Assembly: GCA_043810925.1 (NCBI GenBank)
Contig: JBDRNT010000099.1
Span: forward strand, 1-52,578
DNA: 52,578 bases
Source: Candidatus Eiseniibacteriota bacterium
Lineage (GTDB): Bacteria; Arandabacterota; Arandabacteria; Arandabacterales; Arandabacteraceae
Direction of reading: 5' to 3'
The notes under the pieces were generated by a model. It saw only the letters and a program-made list of their open reading frames with translations, was not told where the DNA came from and did no database searches. This document shows, piece by piece, positions 14,887-29,188 of this stretch. The position numbers were made by a program, and so were the translations under genes. Positions within the stretch are counted from its first letter, which is position 1, and each line of letters starts with the position of its first letter.

Positions 14887-17088
14887 TCAGGAGAGTCGCT
14901 TCCTGATCCTGCGGAGTCTGAGAGAGTTACTGACCACATTGATCGAGCTCAGGGCCATAGCCGCTTCGGCTATGATCGGGTGGAGGAGTCCGATCCCTGC
15001 GACCGGGATAGCGATTACGTTGTAGAAGAAGGCCCAGAAGAGGTTCTGTCTTATCTTTGAGAAGATCGCTCGCGAGAGACTTACCGCCCTGACGACCCCA
15101 AAGAGGCTCCCGCCTGCTAGCGTGACATCGGAGGATTCGATCGCGATATCGGTTCCGGTGCCTATGGCGATACCGACATCCGCCTCGGCGAGGGCAGGCG
15201 CATCGTTTATGCCGTCACCTACCATCGCGACCTTGCCGTACTTCTGTCTTATCCGTCTGATCTCGTGCGCTTTTTCAGTGGGAAGCACATTCGGGATAAC
15301 GACATCGATACCGCAAGCGCGCCCGACAGCCTCGGCCGTCACCCTGTTATCCCCCGTTATCATCACAATCTCAAGTCCCATGTCCTTAAGTGCCGCTATG
15401 GCATCGGCCGTATCGGGTTTGAGAGTATCCGCCACTCCGATCAGACCCATGATGTTGCCATCCTCGGCAACTGCCGCCACAGTCTGTCCCCCGGCCTCGA
15501 GGTCCTCAGCCATCCGGGAATGGTCGCCTGTGTCTATTCCTTCCTGCTTAAGAAATGGCATCTTCCCCAGTACAACGCGCCGGCCCGCGATGGTTGCCGT
15601 AAGACCCAGCCCGGGTTGTGCTGCGAAATCCTCCGGAGGTGTTATGGTTAGACCCATCGCCCGGGCTTTATCCAGGATCGCCCGGCCGATCGGGTGCTCG
15701 GAAGCGTATTCTATCGATGCCGCCAGAGCCAGCACGCGCGCTTCGTCAGTGCCCGCGGCGGGGGAGACGCTTACAACTTCGGGTTTGCCGACTGTAAGGG
15801 TGCCGGTCTTATCGAGTGCCACAACCTTTATATCTTTCATCACCTGCACGGCATCGGCGGTCCTCAGCAGGATTCCCAGTTCGGCACCGACACCGCCTCC
15901 GACCATTATGGCCGTCGGCGTTGCGAGCCCTAGGGCGCACGGGCATGAAATAACCAGCACGGCAACCGCGGCGAAGATAGCCAGCGTGAGTCTTGAGGCC
16001 TCAGCATCCACCCACGGAAGATCAGGCATACCCGGGACCAGAAGCCACACCAGGAATACGGCGGCGGCGATCGCAAGTACGGTCGGAACGAATATCGCGG
16101 TGATTCTGTCCGCGAGCTTCTGAACCGGGACACGCTGTTCCTGAAACTGAAGTACGGCTTCGGCTACCTGTGACAGGAATGTTTCCGAGCCAACCTTGGT
16201 TGCTCTCACGGTCACGGCGCCCGTCTGGTTGATCGTGGCGCCGATCACCTCGTCACCCTCCGCCTTCTCCACGGGCATGGATTCTCCTGTTGCAAGTGAC
16301 TCATCCACGCTCGTGCGGCCTGATTCGACAACGCCGTCGGTTGGTATCTTCTCACCCGGTCGTATCGCAAACACGTCGCCAACCTTAAGATCACCCGCAG
16401 GTATTTCCTTTTCGCCTTCGGGTGTGACGATACGCGCCGTCTTGGCCGCCAGTTTGAGCAGTTTTTGCACGGCGCCGGAAGCCCGGCCTCTGGCCTTGGA
16501 TTCGATGTGGCGTCCGGTCAGGTGGATCGCCATTATCATTGCCGCAACGGCCGCGTATGAGTCGACCCTTGAACCGGAGAGTTTCATAACACCTGTCGAG
16601 AGCGACGCAAGAGTTCCAAGGGCAATCAAAACGTCCATGTTGGGATAGCCCTTGCTGGCGCTCCGCCATGCGCTTACGTAAACGCTCCGGCCGGCATAGA
16701 AGAGAACCGGCAGGGCGAAGGCCATCATCAGGGTATCGGGCAGGACCCCGTGCCAGATACCGGTCATATGAAGGACCATGATGACAATGGTGGGGACTGC
16801 AAAGAACCACGCCTGGATCATCCGCGTCCTGGCAGTGCCGGCTTCGGACCCGGCGCCCGCGGCCACGGTGTCTCCGGTTTCAAATGCCTCGTAACCGGCC
16901 GACTTGACGGCCTGCGTCATAATCTCAGGTGTGGTCAGGGTGGAGTCGTAGGTAACGCTTGCCGTCGAACTGGCGAGATTGACAGAGACTTCCCCGATAC
17001 CGGCGACCTTGCCCAGGGCAACCTCAACATTGTGGGCACACGCCGCACACCTCAGTCCCCTGAGTCCAAGCCTGATCCTTTTGTCCAT
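14887..17088 (-). CDS. copA: Cu(+)-translocating P1B-type ATPase
   Basis: N-terminal [38 protein letters not shown] and MALSS (P1B-1 signature). Confidence 0.93.
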
Positions 17089-19492: not shown

Positions 19493-19569
19493 TTGCGAGT
19501 TGACAACTTGTAGATCCTGCGGTTACCAGGTGTAGCAGTCAGACCACTGCAAGCGAAGGAGGAGCGAGA

Positions 19570-20256
19570 GTGAACCTGATGGTCCAGCGCAGTCTCGCGG
19601 AAACGCTTGACAGGGTAGACGAGATGCTGTTCTTCGAGCGTCGAATCCCCAAGGCGGAGGCGCGGCGTGTAGCCCGATGGCTGGCCGGCCGGCAGGGCTT
19701 GCCGGACTCCTATGCGGGCATGTTCGCGCCCACGCCGCGGGACTTCGAGGCAGGCATAAGCCTCTTCACCGGTGAGCGGGTCAGTTCCGGTGCGGCCACG
19801 GGACATATACTTGGCGAGGAAACCTGTCGGACATTGCTTCTGCTGGATGCCGGGGTGCCCGAAGCCAGTGCCGCACTCAGGCGTGCCAACCGGTCAATGG
19901 ATGCCAGGCTCACCGCGTCGGAGTCACACCAGGGCCGGCGCGGCTTCTTCTGATGCGGAACCTGCACGGCGTCGGTCTGGCGCCATCTCGCTGCAGGGGG
20001 TCTCTCCCGTCGCGGGGAACGATTGACGGGTGGTGTCCGCGTTCTTCAAGAGCATCGTGATGGCCGGGGCCGGTGGCGGCGCTTTCCTTACTATTACACA
20101 CTGCTTGCGCTGGTCGAAGGTGGTGAGAAGACGGCTGTTCCGGAGATGCGCTATGCCGCTCCGGGGCTGGAGCGTATGTTGAAGAGGTCGGCCCGTCGAG
20201 ACAGGTACGATGTCAGGCGCCGGGAATTAGCTCAGCGAGTGCTCGAACTGCTCTGA
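19570..20256 (+). CDS. Uncharacterised 228-aa protein, predicted selenoprotein with UCxxC motif (Sec128)
   Basis: Track ORFs 19570..19953 and 20023..20256 are in frame across TGA 19951-19953, reading GFF-U-CGTCTASVWRHL; strong SD AAGGAGGAG at the first start only; SECIS-like hairpin follows. Confidence 0.8.
19968..19984 (+). promoter_or_regulatory. Bacterial SECIS-like hairpin
   Basis: GGCGTC-GGTCT-GGCGCC (6-bp stem with one G-U pair); GGUCU matches the E. coli fdhF SECIS apex; loop starts 21 nt after UGA. Confidence 0.75.
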
Positions 20257-20320
20257 TTTGCGCGTACAGGTGTACGCGGTGTTTGTGGTGTAACACGTGT
20301 GACACGGGTGGATTTCGATC

Positions 20321-21569: not shown

Positions 21570-21598
21570 TAAACCATTCAGCCATCGCGTGTGTCTAA
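21570..21598 (+). promoter_or_regulatory. Possible ECF-type autoregulatory promoter
   Basis: TAAACC-N17-GTCTAA just upstream of the ECF sigma gene; resembles AAC/GTC ECF promoters. Confidence 0.35.
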
Positions 21599-21623
21599 GT
21601 CTATGGAAGGCCAAAAGGGCAAT

Positions 21624-22151
21624 ATGAGTGATCTTGGCAAGCGATTGGCAAGTGGTGACGAGGATGCCTTCGACGAGACGGTTGAGCTCTACTCCAGGAA
21701 GGTCTACGGTCTGTGCTATCGCATCCTGCGGGATCAGGGAGAGGCGGAGGATATGACCCAGGAGGTGTTTGTGAGGGTGTACACGAAGCATAAGACATTC
21801 AAGGGTAAGTCCTCACTCTACACCTGGATCTACAGGATAGCTCTTAACATGTGTTTTTCCCATCTGAAGAAGCGAAGGGCCCCGACTGTACCTTTCGAAG
21901 AGGTGGAGGGGGTGCTCACAACCAGAGCGGACGATAGCGTCGACCACCGCGAGCTCGAGCGGCTCGTGGCGGGCGCCGTAGGTCAGCTTCCTCCCAAGCA
22001 GAGGGCGGTTTTCACCATGAGGTTTTATGACAAGATGACCTTCAAGGAAATATCCGAGGCCGTGGGAACATCGGTGGGCGGTGCGAAGGCCAACCATCAC
22101 TTTGCCGTTGAACGTCTGAGAGAGATCTTAAAGGAGGCTGATCCGAAGTGA
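21624..22151 (+). CDS. ECF RNA polymerase sigma factor (RpoE/SigW-like)
   Basis: AEDMTQEVF, YTWIYRIALN, LPPKQRAVF...TFKEIS; start 21624 or 21603. Confidence 0.93.
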   Translation: MSDLGKRLASGDEDAFDETVELYSRKVYGLCYRILRDQGEAEDMTQEVFVRVYTKHKTFKGKSSLYTWIYRIALNMCFSHLKKRRAPTVPFEEVEGVLTTRADDSVDHRELERLVAGAVGQLPPKQRAVFTMRFYDKMTFKEISEAVGTSVGGAKANHHFAVERLREILKEADPK

Positions 22152-22762
22152 GCCGGGAGTGTGACCATAAACATGAGGAACTGATCGACTTCGTGGAGGG
22201 AGATCTGGCTGCGGAGCGTGCCGATGAGATCGATGCTCATCTTAAAGTCTGCAAGGAATGTGCGGCGTATGTCGAGTCGATCAAGCGGACATTCTCGGTA
22301 CTTACGGATGACACCATACCGGAGCCACCGCCGGGATACTGGGCGTACCTCCCACAGAAGGTTAGACAGCAGGCAGGCGCCAGGCGCAGACGCCACAGAG
22401 TTCTGGTGTTTGCACCGGGGATGGCGGCACTGGCAGTCGTTCTTATGCTCATCTGGTGGGGGACACGTGCACCGGTCCCGGAGATCACGACTCTGGAGAT
22501 GATCACGGCCGAGCTGGCTACAGAGGATCTGCTTGAGTCGGTCTCCTCCAACGAGGTTTATGAGATTATGTTCGTGGATGCGGCAGCGGAAGAGATGACA
22601 TCACTGGATCAGTACTTTAACGAGACCGAAGATATCTACGATCTCATCGGTAACTTGAGTGATGCCGAAGCGGAGGCTTTCGTGGCGGAGCTTGACAATC
22701 TCATGCGTGCCGATGAGGGTACTTCTGAGGTTATGACCGATACCCCGGGGAAGGAGTGTTGA
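22148..22762 (+). CDS. zf-HC2 transmembrane anti-sigma factor
   Basis: HLKVCKEC motif, single TM helix, acidic periplasmic tail; GTGA overlap with the sigma gene. Confidence 0.85.
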   Translation: MSRECDHKHEELIDFVEGDLAAERADEIDAHLKVCKECAAYVESIKRTFSVLTDDTIPEPPPGYWAYLPQKVRQQAGARRRRHRVLVFAPGMAALAVVLMLIWWGTRAPVPEITTLEMITAELATEDLLESVSSNEVYEIMFVDAAAEEMTSLDQYFNETEDIYDLIGNLSDAEAEAFVAELDNLMRADEGTSEVMTDTPGKEC

Positions 22763-23349
22763 AATTGAGAAGACCAATCATGTGTATTGCGCTCAGTTGG
22801 CTCCTGCTTGTGCCCATCTTCTTGTGTGAGGTTTGGGCGGGCGAGAGTCCCAGGGACATTATCGAGGCCTACAGGGTCTGGAAACTCACAGAGGCTCTTG
22901 ATCTTTCGGAAGAACAGATGCCCGTCTTCTTCGCGAGATTGAGGGAAGTTGACGAGGCAGCCGCGGATTTCAAGCAGGAAGAACGGGAAGCCCTTGAGGA
23001 GATTGCCCATCTTCTTGATAAGAAGGATTCCGATGAAGGTGACTTAGCCAGGGCCCTCGCCAGATACGAGGATCTGAAAAGAGAACACCGCGAGGATACC
23101 GAAAGACTTCGAAGCGAGGCCGTCTCTTTGCTGAATGTCAGGCAGAGATGTCAGCATGCGGTGTTTGAGGAAAGATTCCGGTCGGAGCTGAGAGACATGA
23201 TTGCCAGGGTGAGGGAGATGCGTGCGGGAAGTAGGCCGGAAGACGCAGGGAGGTTTGGAGAATCTGGCAACCCCGGCAGTCTCGGTGAGCGGGATGGGAG
23301 CGGCCGTGTGGGGGAACGTTCAGGTGGTTCAGGCAAGCGGGGTCGCTAA
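22756..23349 (+). CDS. Periplasmic Spy/CpxP-like helical protein
   Basis: Signal peptide, LTEALDLSEEQ and LLNVRQ (LTxxQ-like) motifs, third gene of the ECF locus. Confidence 0.7.
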   Translation: MLKLRRPIMCIALSWLLLVPIFLCEVWAGESPRDIIEAYRVWKLTEALDLSEEQMPVFFARLREVDEAAADFKQEEREALEEIAHLLDKKDSDEGDLARALARYEDLKREHREDTERLRSEAVSLLNVRQRCQHAVFEERFRSELRDMIARVREMRAGSRPEDAGRFGESGNPGSLGERDGSGRVGERSGGSGKRGR

Positions 23350-24026
23350 TTCAGATTGACGATGACCACTTTTCTGACGGGCCAGACGGGATCGTTGGAT
23401 TCGATCTCGATCCATCTGCCATCACTCCAGTCCGGGAGAATCTCGATATCAAGCGGGACTTCCTCCCCTCCGCCAAGCGAGGCCTGACTCCACGCGTTGA
23501 GACAACCGAAGCACCGAACCTCCTTTATCAGGAGTTCCTGCTTACCCCGGTTGGCCACAGTGAGCATGCGAAAAGGATCGGCAGACTCGGATTTGTCGAA
23601 CATCAGTGGATCGGGAAGAGCCACCATGTGCGGTAGATCCCCGGGGACGACCTGGCCGGTCGCTGTAACCGACAACCTCGGGTTTGCCTTATCATCAGAG
23701 TCAACGAACAGGGTTTTGGTTGCATGATCCTTGATCGTCTCACCCGTGTATGAAAGCAGGATCGAAGTCCTCTCGCCGGGGGGTACCGTTTGAGCTTCTG
23801 CAGTTGCCGCAAGACAATCGCAGGTCGAGTGGAGCGAAATATGAAGTGTGTCGGTCCCTCTGTTCGTGACCGCGATCTCGGTGCTTACGGTTTCACCACG
23901 CTTCAGACTCCCGAACTCCCAGATCTCATCGTCAAGTGCAATTGAAGGGCCCTGCGCCTTCTTTGTTACAACGGGGGAGCAAGAGGTCGCCACAATAAGA
24001 AAAGCGGCGACCCACCGCGCTACCAT
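23346..24026 (-). CDS. DUF1573-domain (Ig-like) lipoprotein
   Basis: Lipobox-like ATSC; WEFG...VTNRGTDTLHI...STCDCL and a second module NRGKQELLIKEVRCFGC. Confidence 0.75.
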   Translation of the reverse strand: MVARWVAAFLIVATSCSPVVTKKAQGPSIALDDEIWEFGSLKRGETVSTEIAVTNRGTDTLHISLHSTCDCLAATAEAQTVPPGERTSILLSYTGETIKDHATKTLFVDSDDKANPRLSVTATGQVVPGDLPHMVALPDPLMFDKSESADPFRMLTVANRGKQELLIKEVRCFGCLNAWSQASLGGGEEVPLDIEILPDWSDGRWIEIESNDPVWPVRKVVIVNLN

Positions 24027-25460: not shown

Positions 25461-25991
25461 TTACTTGGCCTCAAGTACCTCGTCGAGTTTTTTCGAAAGC
25501 ATTACGGTAAGATCCGGTGGGTGATCGTACTGGACCAGTATAACCTGGCCGGCCCGGTTCAGGACGAAGATGCTGAAAGTATAGTCATAGGCCTTGTAGG
25601 CCCGTGCTGCGCGGGTCGCGCTGTCCCATAGTGTTGTGAAGTCTATTCCCTCGGCCTTAAGAAAAGCACGCACTCCCTGGGTGTTTTCTCTGTCGAAATT
25701 GATGCCGACAAACGTGATTCCCTTGGAACCATAGTCCTCATGCACCCTCTGGACATCGGTCAGGGCTTCCCTGCAATTGGGGCACGCCATGCTCCAGATC
25801 ACGATTACCGTTGCGTTGCTGTTGTGCACGACCTTACCGTAGTTGAACTGCTCCATCCCGAAGATATCGGATAGCTGGAAGGCGGGCGCTTCATCACCGA
25901 CCCTGATTCTGTCCTGGACAACCGACGGGCCCTTGGCGCATCCCATGATGACGGCAAGACACATGCAGGCTATGACCAATTTGGTTAACAT
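25461..25991 (-). CDS. TlpA family thiol-disulfide reductase lipoprotein
   Basis: Lipobox IMGC, VGDEAPAFQL, WSMACPNC, SD GAGGAGG. Confidence 0.88.
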   Translation of the reverse strand: MLTKLVIACMCLAVIMGCAKGPSVVQDRIRVGDEAPAFQLSDIFGMEQFNYGKVVHNSNATVIVIWSMACPNCREALTDVQRVHEDYGSKGITFVGINFDRENTQGVRAFLKAEGIDFTTLWDSATRAARAYKAYDYTFSIFVLNRAGQVILVQYDHPPDLTVMLSKKLDEVLEAK

Positions 25992-27839: not shown

Positions 27840-28142
27840 TCAGCAGCAGGGTTTCTTCGGTTCGCCGCAGCAATCGCATGTGGGTTCAGTGCCTCTCACG
27901 GCGCCGACTATGATCGCTTCGGCACAGCCCACACCTGATTCCACCTCGATTGCTCCGAATTCGCAGTTGAGCGCACAAGCGCCGCATTCCATGCACGCGT
28001 CCCTGTCGGTGATCTTTGCCTTCCCATTTGTGATTTCGAAGACGGCGTGGGGGCAGACCATCTCACACATCCCGCATCCGGTGCATTTGTCCTCGTTGAG
28101 ATTCAGGGTGGTCACACCCTTAAGATACTTAAGCTCACTCAT
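27840..28142 (-). CDS. hgcB: Mercury methylation ferredoxin HgcB
   Basis: Two CxxCxxCxxxC motifs including CMECGACALNC, GVGCA, Cys-rich tail ending CC; directly after hgcA; ATG 28142 with SD GGAGG. Confidence 0.95.
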   Translation of the reverse strand: MSELKYLKGVTTLNLNEDKCTGCGMCEMVCPHAVFEITNGKAKITDRDACMECGACALNCEFGAIEVESGVGCAEAIIVGAVRGTEPTCDCCGEPKKPCC

Positions 28143-28156
28143 GCTCAATCCTCCGG

Positions 28157-29188
28157 CTATACGAACCGCGCGATGATCCAGAGCGCCAATCCCACCGCAG
28201 CCGCTGCGATCTGAAGCGGCACGGCAACCCGCATCTCTTTCCTGACACCTGAGAGTGAAGTGTATGTTGAAGCGCCGGTTAAGTTCATGGCACAGAACGA
28301 TGATATCGAAGTGAAAATAAGTGCCCATGCGACGGCCTCAAGCGGCATGCTGCCCACGAGTCCCGCCGTCAGGGCAATCAGGAACGCAAGCGCACCGGAA
28401 ACCATCCCCTTGGATGAGAAACTTCGCCCGGGAAGCCACGGAAGCAGTGCGGGTGCCAGCGCCAACCCGGCCAAATAGGCAAGTATCAGGTTAAGGGCCG
28501 AGCGGCTCCCAACCTGTAACGTGAGTTGCGAGGAATAGCCGCTCCTGTTGAGCCCGGCCAGTATGACGAAAAGGCCCATCACGGGAAACAGATACTTCAG
28601 ACCCTGCAGGATCTCGGCCGGAATCAAGCGGGCCCGGTCACGTAGGTTAAACCTAACGCGTCGCATCTCACGTGTGGCAACCATTCCGGCTTTGAGAAAT
28701 GGATGTATGTCTGAGGCACGGACGGGACCGAACACTAATGAGAACCCGGATGATTTCCTGACCTCATGGGCGGCCACGCCCGTCGCACCCAGCTGGGGTG
28801 CTATGATCTTCCGGTGACTGACCACTTCTTTTAGTCTGGTCTGCTCGATGCGGTTGACCATCTCCTCGGTACCGAAGGTGCCCTTCCCGGCAGCGCACCA
28901 TACGTTGATACCATTCGTATCAAGCACCATGGTCCATGCATCCAGCCCCTTGAGTTCCCGGCGGAGGGTGTCGAAGCTCAGCTTGTAATTCGCGGAAGCG
29001 AAGACCAGCGAGTCCTCACCGGGATTGCCGACGGCGTAGAGACCAGGGTCCACCGTGTAATCCATCCGGCGGATCGCCCAGGTCGCCTTAAGATCGCCCC
29101 ACCTGTCCGCCCGGCTGAGTTCTGTGGATACTACGGGAACGTCTCCCGCGTTTGTGGCGACCGATCCTGTTATGTATTCCTTACCCAT
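28157..29188 (-). CDS. hgcA: Mercury methylation corrinoid protein HgcA
   Basis: Cap-helix motif GINVWCAAGKG, ANYKLSFD, PQLGATGV, C-terminal TM helices with NLTGASTYTSLSGVRKEM. Confidence 0.97.
   Translation of the reverse strand: MGKEYITGSVATNAGDVPVVSTELSRADRWGDLKATWAIRRMDYTVDPGLYAVGNPGEDSLVFASANYKLSFDTLRRELKGLDAWTMVLDTNGINVWCAAGKGTFGTEEMVNRIEQTRLKEVVSHRKIIAPQLGATGVAAHEVRKSSGFSLVFGPVRASDIHPFLKAGMVATREMRRVRFNLRDRARLIPAEILQGLKYLFPVMGLFVILAGLNRSGYSSQLTLQVGSRSALNLILAYLAGLALAPALLPWLPGRSFSSKGMVSGALAFLIALTAGLVGSMPLEAVAWALIFTSISSFCAMNLTGASTYTSLSGVRKEMRVAVPLQIAAAAVGLALWIIARFV

Follow-up and report, generated by a model that had tools for sequence, protein, structure and literature searches.

The 52,578-nucleotide (nt) stretch of DNA analysed here, hereafter the window (contig JBDRNT010000099.1, positions 1 to 52,578 of the forward strand, from the Candidatus Eiseniibacteriota bacterium assembly GCA_043810925.1), carries at 19570–20256 on the + strand a gene that very probably encodes a genuine selenocysteine (Sec)-containing protein of a large, unnamed family of anaerobes. 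The gene appears to be a single coding sequence of 228 codons plus a terminal TGA, in which an in-frame TGA at 19951–19953 (+) would be read as Sec at residue 128 and would open a U-C-x-x-C motif. The reading of TGA as Sec draws on homologues, on the TGA found at other loci and on short relatives that stop at the same site; the assignment of the whole coding sequence to an unnamed alpha/alpha-toroid selenoprotein family draws on homologues, on the ratio of non-synonymous to synonymous change (pN/pS) and on a structural model with a mean predicted local distance difference test score (pLDDT) of 97.9. We hold the selenoprotein identity and the fold, taken jointly, to be highly probable, and would put the preferred explanation as a whole at a probability of about 0.8. 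The family looks to be new, within a well-known kind of system, that of a Sec-encoding UGA followed by a bacterial Sec insertion sequence (bSECIS).

Two open reading frames (ORFs) share a common frame on the + strand of the window, one at 19570–19953 (GTG start, 127 aa) and the other at 20023–20256. A first-pass annotation, generated earlier by a model, had claimed that they join in frame through the TGA at 19951–19953 into a protein of 228 aa, and translation confirms this (...GRRGFF-U-CGTCTASVWRHL...); the TGA is the sole interruption of the 228-codon gene, whose terminal stop at 20254–20256 is also a TGA. The same annotation had credited only the first ORF with a strong Shine-Dalgarno sequence. 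Indeed, AAGGAGG is found at 19556–19562 (+), 7 nt 5' of the GTG start, whereas the second ORF opens with a TTG, 24 codons past the TGA, that has merely GGGGAA upstream of it. This TTG is a conserved Leu codon across the family alignment, and at the codon where the window gene has its GTG, relatives begin with ATG, GTG or TTG. The most conserved segment of the family, C-G-x-C-x4-W-R, lies directly 3' of the TGA; the codons for C129-G-T-C132 (19954–19965, +) form the remainder of the conserved centre and, according to the alignment and to DSSP on the model, the N-terminus of helix 130–141.

The homologue search returned 1,084 clusters at E <= 0.001 among 8,000 candidates scored. At the level of 50%-identity clusters, 551 representatives fall within the same threshold, most of them 220–235 residues long, and every named relative among them is a 'hypothetical protein'. 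Full-length homologues with CCxxC at the site, as well as other genomes with TGA plus a hairpin, had been put forward as support for the selenoprotein proposal, and both were obtained. Among 325 distinct homologues in the alignment, position 128 is Cys or Sec in 321, C129 is kept in 324 and C132 in 322, the family consensus at the site being G-x-Y-C-C-G-x-C. A survey of the best 80 of the 228 relatives' loci in a species-level genome collection found the homologous codon to be TGA in 15 and TGC or TGT in 65, and never TAA or TAG. In all 16 Sec forms (the window and the 15 loci), Sec is confined to position 128 and never occupies 129 or 132.

Were the TGA a true stop, the locus would hold two genes, one gene split in two or a pseudogene, or else the TGA would be an error of sequencing. 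In favour of such an arrangement, gene callers give the 127-aa product in many records, all of them annotated as hypothetical protein, and the folding energy of the downstream hairpin is insignificant when taken alone. However, the same TGA recurs in those 15 independently assembled loci, and the internal stop is always TGA, whereas ten Sec-clade genes, the window's and those of nine loci, end variously in TGA, TAA or TAG. The N-terminal 127-residue product, used as a query, matched 227 clusters at E <= 1e-10; among the best 120 of these, 99 are exactly 127 aa long and 119 terminate in G-x-[F/Y/W/H], just short of the Sec residue. There is no start codon between the TGA and the conserved CGxC...WR segment. 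When the window is compared with seven members of its clade, pN/pS is 0.19–0.47 downstream of the internal TGA and 0.13–0.36 upstream of it, pointing to purifying selection on the downstream half as on the upstream half. Moreover, TGA forms were found in SelB-positive genomes only (11 of 11). Among the sequencing runs listed there was no RNA run, and one DNA run contained 0.07 of the sampled words. The true-stop explanation is close to refuted. Under the Sec reading, Sec forms look to be common, yet they are deposited as truncated hypothetical proteins, such as UCF78595.1, MFC1800260.1 and HVP58632.1.

The genome from which the window comes holds the machinery that such decoding would need. 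Its tRNA-Sec scores 74.2 bits, with the anticodon TCA assigned by ARAGORN, and SelB (375.8 bits), SelA (587.2 bits) and two SelD proteins (395.5 and 361.7 bits) are present, all above the curated cut-offs. All 10 of the other TGA-form genomes that were tested for SelB carry it, as do all 5 that were tested for tRNA-Sec; SelB is also present in 7 of 10 Cys-form genomes tested, so that it discriminates only mildly. A point that speaks against the Sec reading is that the Rfam tRNA-Sec model also matches control genomes that are not known to decode Sec; SelB is therefore the firmer marker. The SelD copy adjoining the tRNA-Sec is itself a selenoprotein (...SCAG-U-ASK...; contig C89 of the window's genome, with the TGA at position 1531 of locus L019 and the tRNA at 1501–1597 of locus L001), and in its SECIS a 7-bp stem carries the loop CGGGU.

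A SECIS-like stem-loop was found inside the coding sequence at 19961–19997 (+), spanning 10–46 nt downstream of the UGA. It is made up of a 6-bp lower stem (19961–19966/19992–19997), a one-base bulge, a 6-bp upper stem GGCGUC/GGCGCC (19968–19973/19979–19984) and the loop GGUCU (19974–19978), which begins 20 nt past the UGA. The hairpin formed by the upper stem and loop, 19968–19984, is unique in the window (1 match, with 0 expected in 100 shuffles). The bSECIS criteria in the accessible text of a 2026 review (PMC13188914) comprise a loop of 3–9 nt, an upper stem of 4–16 bp, a G in the first two loop positions, a distance of 16–37 nt from the UGA and a minimum free energy (MFE) of <= -7.5 kcal/mol. 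The window hairpin, with its 5-nt loop, 6-bp stem, G in first place, 20-nt spacing and MFE of -16.3 to -17.9 kcal/mol, falls within all of these limits, as does that of locus L039; the earlier statement that a hairpin with a GGUCU apex follows at the expected distance thus stands.

By contrast, folding energy is unremarkable against shuffled sequences, with z = 0.43 for 86 nt and z = -1.64 for the 37-nt element (12 of 200 shuffles being as stable). The SECIS of the genome's own SelD, taken as a positive control, likewise reached only z = -0.81, and support was therefore sought in comparative tests. Every one of the 16 Sec forms has an uninterrupted stem of 6–7 bp with its 3' arm on the Trp-Arg codons. 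Counting stems of 6 bp or more at the site gives 16 of 16 Sec forms versus 11 of 63 Cys forms, a difference that the p-value overstates on account of kinship. In the window register 83.9% of cells pair, compared with 28.9–55.0% when the partner is slid; one lower-stem pair changes from A-U to U-A in four sequences, and RNAalifold recovers the upper helix unaided. Across 11 sequences of the window's clade (synonymous divergence 0.4–0.8), four-fold degenerate sites with an invariant amino acid have an invariant third base at 5 of 5 positions in the upper stem-loop versus 0 of 46 elsewhere (p = 4e-7). The equivalent sites of a Cys-form control clade gave 1 of 4 versus 16 of 56, and other control clades had too few usable sites. 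These sequence comparisons argue that the hairpin is under RNA-level selection beyond coding constraint.

Besides the folding energies, several features of the stem-loop weigh against a SECIS assignment. The upper stem contains 0 compensatory pairs by pair count and by RNAalifold, the stems of loci L039 and L044 are displaced by 1–3 nt from the common register, and the loop of the Dehalococcoidia forms, CUUGU, lacks a G in its first two positions; L044 has such a G solely through an alternative pairing. In Rfam no family reached its gathering score in the window, and a permissive scan of 19900–20060 gave a chance snoRNA match only. A covariance model, R1, built from the Sec hairpins was set aside as uninformative: it matched nearly all loci (Sec forms at 51.5–76.2 bits, Cys forms at 15.8–52.5 bits), since its scores reflect coding conservation and the training set. 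Three Cys forms (L035, L084 and L104) retain a stem of 7–8 bp at the SECIS position and two others (L078 and L089) score about 50 bits with the hairpin model; stems of this kind could be relics of earlier Sec forms, or chance.

A different way to pass the UGA would be the insertion of a standard residue, be it Cys, Trp or Arg through a near-cognate tRNA or a residue assigned by an altered code. Cys would certainly serve at this site, as it does in 65 of the 80 loci surveyed. Yet TGA also terminates the window gene, which means that the codon is not reassigned in this genome; the full Sec machinery is present; and a dedicated hairpin, apparently selected at the RNA level, occupies the SECIS position. 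We regard standard-residue insertion as very improbable, and Sec as the residue that the UGA most plausibly specifies.

The read-through protein is predicted to adopt a compact ten-helix alpha/alpha toroid. Its AlphaFold model has a predicted template modelling score of 0.94, with 225 of 228 residues at a pLDDT of at least 90, and DSSP assigns ten helices and only isolated bridge residues, the CCxxC opening helix 130–141. The first-pass annotation had judged the sequence helical and its Sec-Cys-x-x-Cys motif to lie in a non-thioredoxin fold, and the model agrees on both counts; a thioredoxin-fold selenoprotein, tried as a candidate, was ruled out by an all-helical model as opposed to a mixed beta-sheet. 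The high-ranking structural matches are alpha/alpha toroids without exception. They include the complement C5 thioester domain (TED) 6rqj_A (Z 12.8, 201 residues aligned, root-mean-square deviation (rmsd) 3.6), squalene-hopene cyclase 1gsz (Z 12.8, 205 aligned, rmsd 3.6), C4Adg 1hzf (Z 12.5, 206 aligned, rmsd 3.7), C3d 3oxu (Z 12.2, 201 aligned, rmsd 3.8), the small cyclase 8paj (Z 11.3, 195 aligned, rmsd 3.4), nisin cyclase 2g0d (Z 10.0, 194 aligned, rmsd 4.0) and farnesyltransferase beta 2zir_B (Z 9.8, 198 aligned, rmsd 4.1), with diterpene and drimenyl synthases at Z 12.3–12.6 in the same list.

Sequence profiles lead to the same families. The motifs WLAGRQG and LQEHRDGRGRW, both found in the read-through protein, had been felt weakly to recall prenyltransferase and squalene-cyclase repeats, an impression with which the profile and fold matches agree. 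A profile of 124 sequences matches 8paj at E = 4.5e-4 and classical cyclases at E = 0.003–0.004, residues 135–175 aligning with the cyclase QW repeats. In ESM language-model features, the nearest clusters are small ones bearing SQHop_cyclase_C, Prenyltrans or TED domains, at 0.79–0.89 (below the 0.9 level), the small SQHop_cyclase_C proteins lying at 0.85–0.89. The best Foldseek rows belong to the same toroid families as well (E = 0.007–0.07, probability 0.97–1.00, query TM-score 0.53–0.60).

Some results count against kinship with any one of these families. No Foldseek match reached E <= 0.001; the probability that hhalign assigned to two single cyclase sequences was only 2–7%; and for helical repeats a Z below ~13 may reflect a common arrangement, the best Z here being 12.8. 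The query has no Pfam match to PF13243, PF13249 or PF00432, to which 2 of 70 members show sub-threshold matches only, and hhalign of sub-profiles detected no internal repeats. A mean-field direct coupling analysis (326 sequences, effective number Meff 272) was dominated by gap and terminal artefacts and was discarded.

The family also appears to be new to the selenoprotein literature. Table 1 of the 2026 catalogue (PMC13188914) comprises 119 prokaryotic selenoprotein families and subfamilies, each keyed to a domain model. For the read-through protein, 0 families were found in Pfam and NCBIfam at E <= 1, and there was no sequence match in the PDB. The window family was found under none of the 119 catalogued families, in keeping with the earlier failure to recognise a selenoprotein family in the sequence; the scans covered Pfam and NCBIfam models, and the few entries keyed to cd or PTHR models have thioredoxin-like, CopZ-like, BtuF-like or Fe-S folds and are not known to be all-helical toroids. 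The accessible text of the deep-Sep and BSepDB papers names no such family, and their supplementary tables could list unnamed candidates; BSepDB, as its accessible text states, compiled previously reported families. A full-text literature search found no paper on 'UCxxC', nothing relevant in the selenoprotein-discovery literature and none relevant for 8PAJ/8PAK.

The family is patchy and is spread over many phyla, mostly in uncultured anaerobes. Judging by record titles, these include WOR-3, Planctomycetota, Chloroflexota, Zixiibacteriota, Cloacimonadota, Latescibacterota, Ignavibacteriota and Verrucomicrobiota, along with a Heimdallarchaeota record, while records of the window's clade are labelled Eisenbacteria or Eiseniibacteriota. 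In the window's phylum it occurs in 7 of 18 genomes, all seven copies being Sec forms with one TGA each; in WOR-3 it is found in 11 of 121 sampled genomes, all Cys forms; and in the class around a Dehalococcoidia Sec form it is present in 1 of 151 genomes, namely the centre genome itself. A quick tree places the Sec forms in four groups and needs 4 changes. However, an approximately unbiased (AU) test did not reject a single Sec clade (p-AU 0.663; the constrained tree was 12.4 log-likelihood units better), and the claim of independent Sec origins was dropped. Sec may have arisen once and then spread, or may have arisen several times.

With regard to function, the residues that are nearly invariant among the 325 homologues (Y48, E69, E84, R138, R163, E192 and R216, plus U/C-C-x-x-C) point to the active site of an enzyme more than to a simple chaperone. 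Arg138, one and a half turns after the CxxC, is present in 323 of them; His79 is present in 305, with Cys in 7 of the 20 exceptions and Asn in two Sec forms; and C86 occurs in only 198. In the mechanism that we propose, UGA 19951–19953 would be decoded as Sec by the SelB/tRNA-Sec system of the genome, directed by the intragenic stem-loop, and the product would be a cytoplasmic selenoprotein of 228 residues in a family of which most members carry Cys at 128. At the N-terminus of helix 130–141, Sec128 would then supply the reactive nucleophile of the U-C-x-x-C centre, cycling through a selenenylsulfide with C129 or C132, and R138, E84 and Y48 would assist; the substrate may be some thiol, oxidant or small molecule. 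The restriction of Sec to position 128 implies that this residue is chemically special. Because of that restriction, of the CxxC at a helix N-terminus and of the invariant Arg, we tentatively prefer a selenol/thiol redox centre to a metal or metalloid site, at somewhat less than even odds. According to the 2026 review (PMC13188914), most uncharacterised selenoproteins bear redox motifs.

This redox proposal has its difficulties. No datum separates redox chemistry from metal binding, His79 is replaced in 20 of the 325 homologues, and the full motif is missing in 4 of the 325, all of them divergent members. Neighbourhood analysis revealed no conserved thioredoxin-system or other partner nearby: the largest cluster of neighbours within +/-4 kb covers 10 of 81 loci only, and among the 146 immediate neighbours at these 81 loci the most frequent Pfam assignments are methyltransferases (8), thioesterases (6), GNATs (6), flavin reductases (5) and nitroreductases (4). 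No fused forms of at least 400 aa were found, which is weak evidence; an apparent fusion to a GFA domain in P0258 has a signal-peptide-like stretch at the junction and was read as two adjacent genes. PADLOC returned no match. Seven members (P0128, P0161, P0165, P0193, P0202, P0203 and P0219) have a conserved N-terminal extension of ~95 residues (LP..P.L..LK.QAK...YGF.SW..L) that has no Pfam match.

It is possible, with a likelihood below that of the redox centre, that the Sec-Cys-x-x-Cys motif instead binds or transforms a soft metal or metalloid (Hg, As, Cu, Zn or Ni) or an organometallic compound in the toroid cavity, perhaps with a tie to mercury methylation. The motif offers three close and nearly invariant chalcogen ligands, and the exchange of His79 for Cys in 7 of the 20 exceptions is a ligand-like swap. 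LanC and farnesyltransferase beta, which are toroids too (Z 10.0 and 9.8), use Zn-thiolate chemistry. In the accessible part of their paper, Haft and Gwadz argue from the CU and CC motifs of SaoL, SaoB, SaoC and HgcA that these proteins interact with heavy metals; they add that some selenoproteins contain a CU or UC dipeptide, of which CU is rare. On the other hand, His79 is Asn in two Sec forms, and no metal-resistance or metal-transport family recurs among the 146 immediate neighbours or in the +/-4 kb clusters. The suggestion that the motif serves soft-metal (Hg, Cu, As) or Fe-S binding or catalysis was not established, no Hg, As or Cu genes recurring in these neighbourhoods.

The mercury connection comes from hgcAB, which the first-pass annotation had placed 8 kb away. 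Both genes are indeed present at 27840–29188 (-), 7.6–9 kb from the gene, with scores of 425.6 bits for hgcA (cut-off 275) and 120.2 bits for hgcB (cut-off 99); the relevance attached to them fared less well. The window HgcA is without the Sec-containing PCUGP N-extension, and no motif surrounds an in-frame TGA that lies upstream. The window's genome (G000) and G021, a member of the same genus, are the only ones with the family gene and hgcA on one contig; in three further genomes of the phylum, and in the 3 WOR-3 genomes holding both genes, the contigs differ, and on one complete chromosome the two genes are ~0.5 Mb apart. Within the window's phylum, hgcA is found in 5 of 7 family-positive and 5 of 11 family-negative genomes (p = 0.37), and in family-positive genomes of other phyla in 3 of 10. 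In WOR-3 without the centre genome the figures are 3 of 10 versus 6 of 110 (odds ratio 7.4, p = 0.027, uncorrected for relatedness), a nominal signal made up of three genomes and favourable to a metal site. The controls showed no enrichment there (SelB, 2 of 10 versus 35 of 110; arsM, 1 of 10 versus 11 of 110), and CdhC was too rare (2 of 121) for use as a lifestyle control. The available text of the hgcAB neighbourhood literature (PMC7438021) mentions nothing resembling the window family, and overall the link to hgcAB is weak. The most ambitious version, in which this would be the first selenoenzyme on a toroid resembling terpene cyclases and TEDs, with a Sec centre in the cavity, a novel metal(loid), organometallic or lipid-like chemistry and a tie to mercury methylation, strikes us as a long shot.

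About as unlikely is a purely structural role, in which the Cys/Sec triad, with or without His79, would hold a Zn ion or an Fe-S cluster and the activity would reside elsewhere in the toroid. The invariance of CCxxC and the presence of His79 in 305 of 325 homologues would suit such a site, as would anaerobic hosts rich in Fe-S proteins, and two selenoprotein families that bind (2Fe-2S), with GxUC and CU motifs, are among the entries in the table of the 2026 review (PMC13188914). However, only three Cys positions are invariant, C86 being kept in 198 of 325, and His79 is dispensable in 20 of 325, Sec forms among them. That Sec is confined so strictly to one position points to a residue with special chemistry, and Sec is rarely selected at purely structural sites. 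A redox-active Sec128 is still the reading that we prefer.

Among the other features of the window, a terminator-like hairpin with a T-rich tail at 20261–20288 (+) stands right after the stop codon and would place the gene last in its transcription unit; it amounts to no more than a consensus match, and a weak one (1 found versus 0.6 expected in shuffles). A P1B-type heavy-metal ATPase with an N-terminal HMA domain (TIGR01525, 581 bits) is encoded at 14887–17088 (-), 2.5 kb upstream on the other strand, and is a Cys form of a family with known Sec forms. A DUF1573/OS_HP2-like lipoprotein at 23346–24026 (-), at 58.8 bits below the cut-off of 100, and a TlpA/AhpC-like redoxin with ...WSMACPNC... 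at 25461–25991 (-) also belong to families with known selenoprotein members and are Cys forms here. Genes for an extracytoplasmic function (ECF) sigma factor and, after it, a zf-HC2 anti-sigma factor lie at 21591–22762 (+), 1.3 kb downstream of the gene; in 6 of 81 loci, too, an ECF sigma cluster recurs close to the family member. In WOR-3, two arsM matches contain one in-frame TGA each (G011:C1:437251-438072 and G267:C77:5311-6117); they are probably Sec-containing arsenite methyltransferases, a selenoprotein family already known.

Selenoprotein families are few in number, and most of those characterised have thioredoxin-like folds (2026 review, PMC13188914), so that a new family on a different scaffold would extend the known range of chemistry for which selenium is selected. 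The selection of Sec flags residue 128 as reactive in a family of > 1,000 database clusters that has no name, Pfam model or studied member, and gives biochemists a definite starting place. At least 119 database entries appear to be miscalled as 127-residue hypothetical proteins, and one family model could correct them. If the weak co-occurrence with hgcA is true, the family could also become a lead on the poorly understood cellular context of mercury methylation.

Among proteins of known structure, the window protein shares the alpha/alpha toroid and QW-type repeats with class II terpene cyclases (1gsz/2sqc, 8paj/8pak, and the drimenyl and ent-copalyl diphosphate synthases). It differs from them in its 228 residues, its ten helices, its Cys/Sec-based centre and its position below the Pfam thresholds; the catalytic DxDD acid motif of the cyclases is absent from the 228-residue sequence, and no cyclase-family genes were found in 18 genomes of the window's phylum. 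The TEDs of complement C3, C4 and C5 and of the alpha-2-macroglobulins are the best or joint-best structural matches (Z 12.2–12.8), with query TM-scores of 0.55–0.60. They carry a reactive Cys in GCGEQ at the N-terminus of the first TED helix, and both this motif and the CCGTC of the window protein present C-G-x-x at a helix N-terminus. Yet the TED alignments begin after the thioester helix, so the two motifs are not topologically equivalent; membership was rejected, as the sequence has CCGTC without Gln in place of GCGEQ, and the window protein, unlike a TED, has no Gln partner and would be cytoplasmic and stand-alone.

The LanC cyclases and the beta subunit of protein prenyltransferases belong to the same fold class, with Z scores below those of the cyclases and TEDs (nisin cyclase 10.0, farnesyltransferase beta 9.8). 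In LanC, where two Cys and one His form the Zn site, and in farnesyltransferase beta, cavity-facing Cys/His ligands activate a thiol by Zn-thiolate chemistry; the window family differs in having no sequence-family (Pfam) match and another ligand pattern, its His79 not being invariant. Sec next to Cys, or within a multi-Cys motif, is likewise found in SaoL, SaoB, SaoC, the N-extension of HgcA (PCUGP), MbdU, the CopZ-like GxUC proteins and GrdB (UxxCxxC). As with the window family, their database entries are truncated at the Sec site and their hosts are exclusively anaerobes; they differ in that the window order is U-C and then x-x-C, with no homology to their NCBIfam models and no conserved operon. 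The gene is also like bacterial selenoprotein genes in general, of which E. coli fdhF is the model case and selD the example from this genome, in the alignment of UGA with Cys codons, a downstream stem-loop and the Sec machinery. The GGUCU loop presumably resembles that of fdhF, and the SelD SECIS is built alike, with a 5-nt loop at +21 to +25, compared with +24 to +28 for the loop of the window gene.

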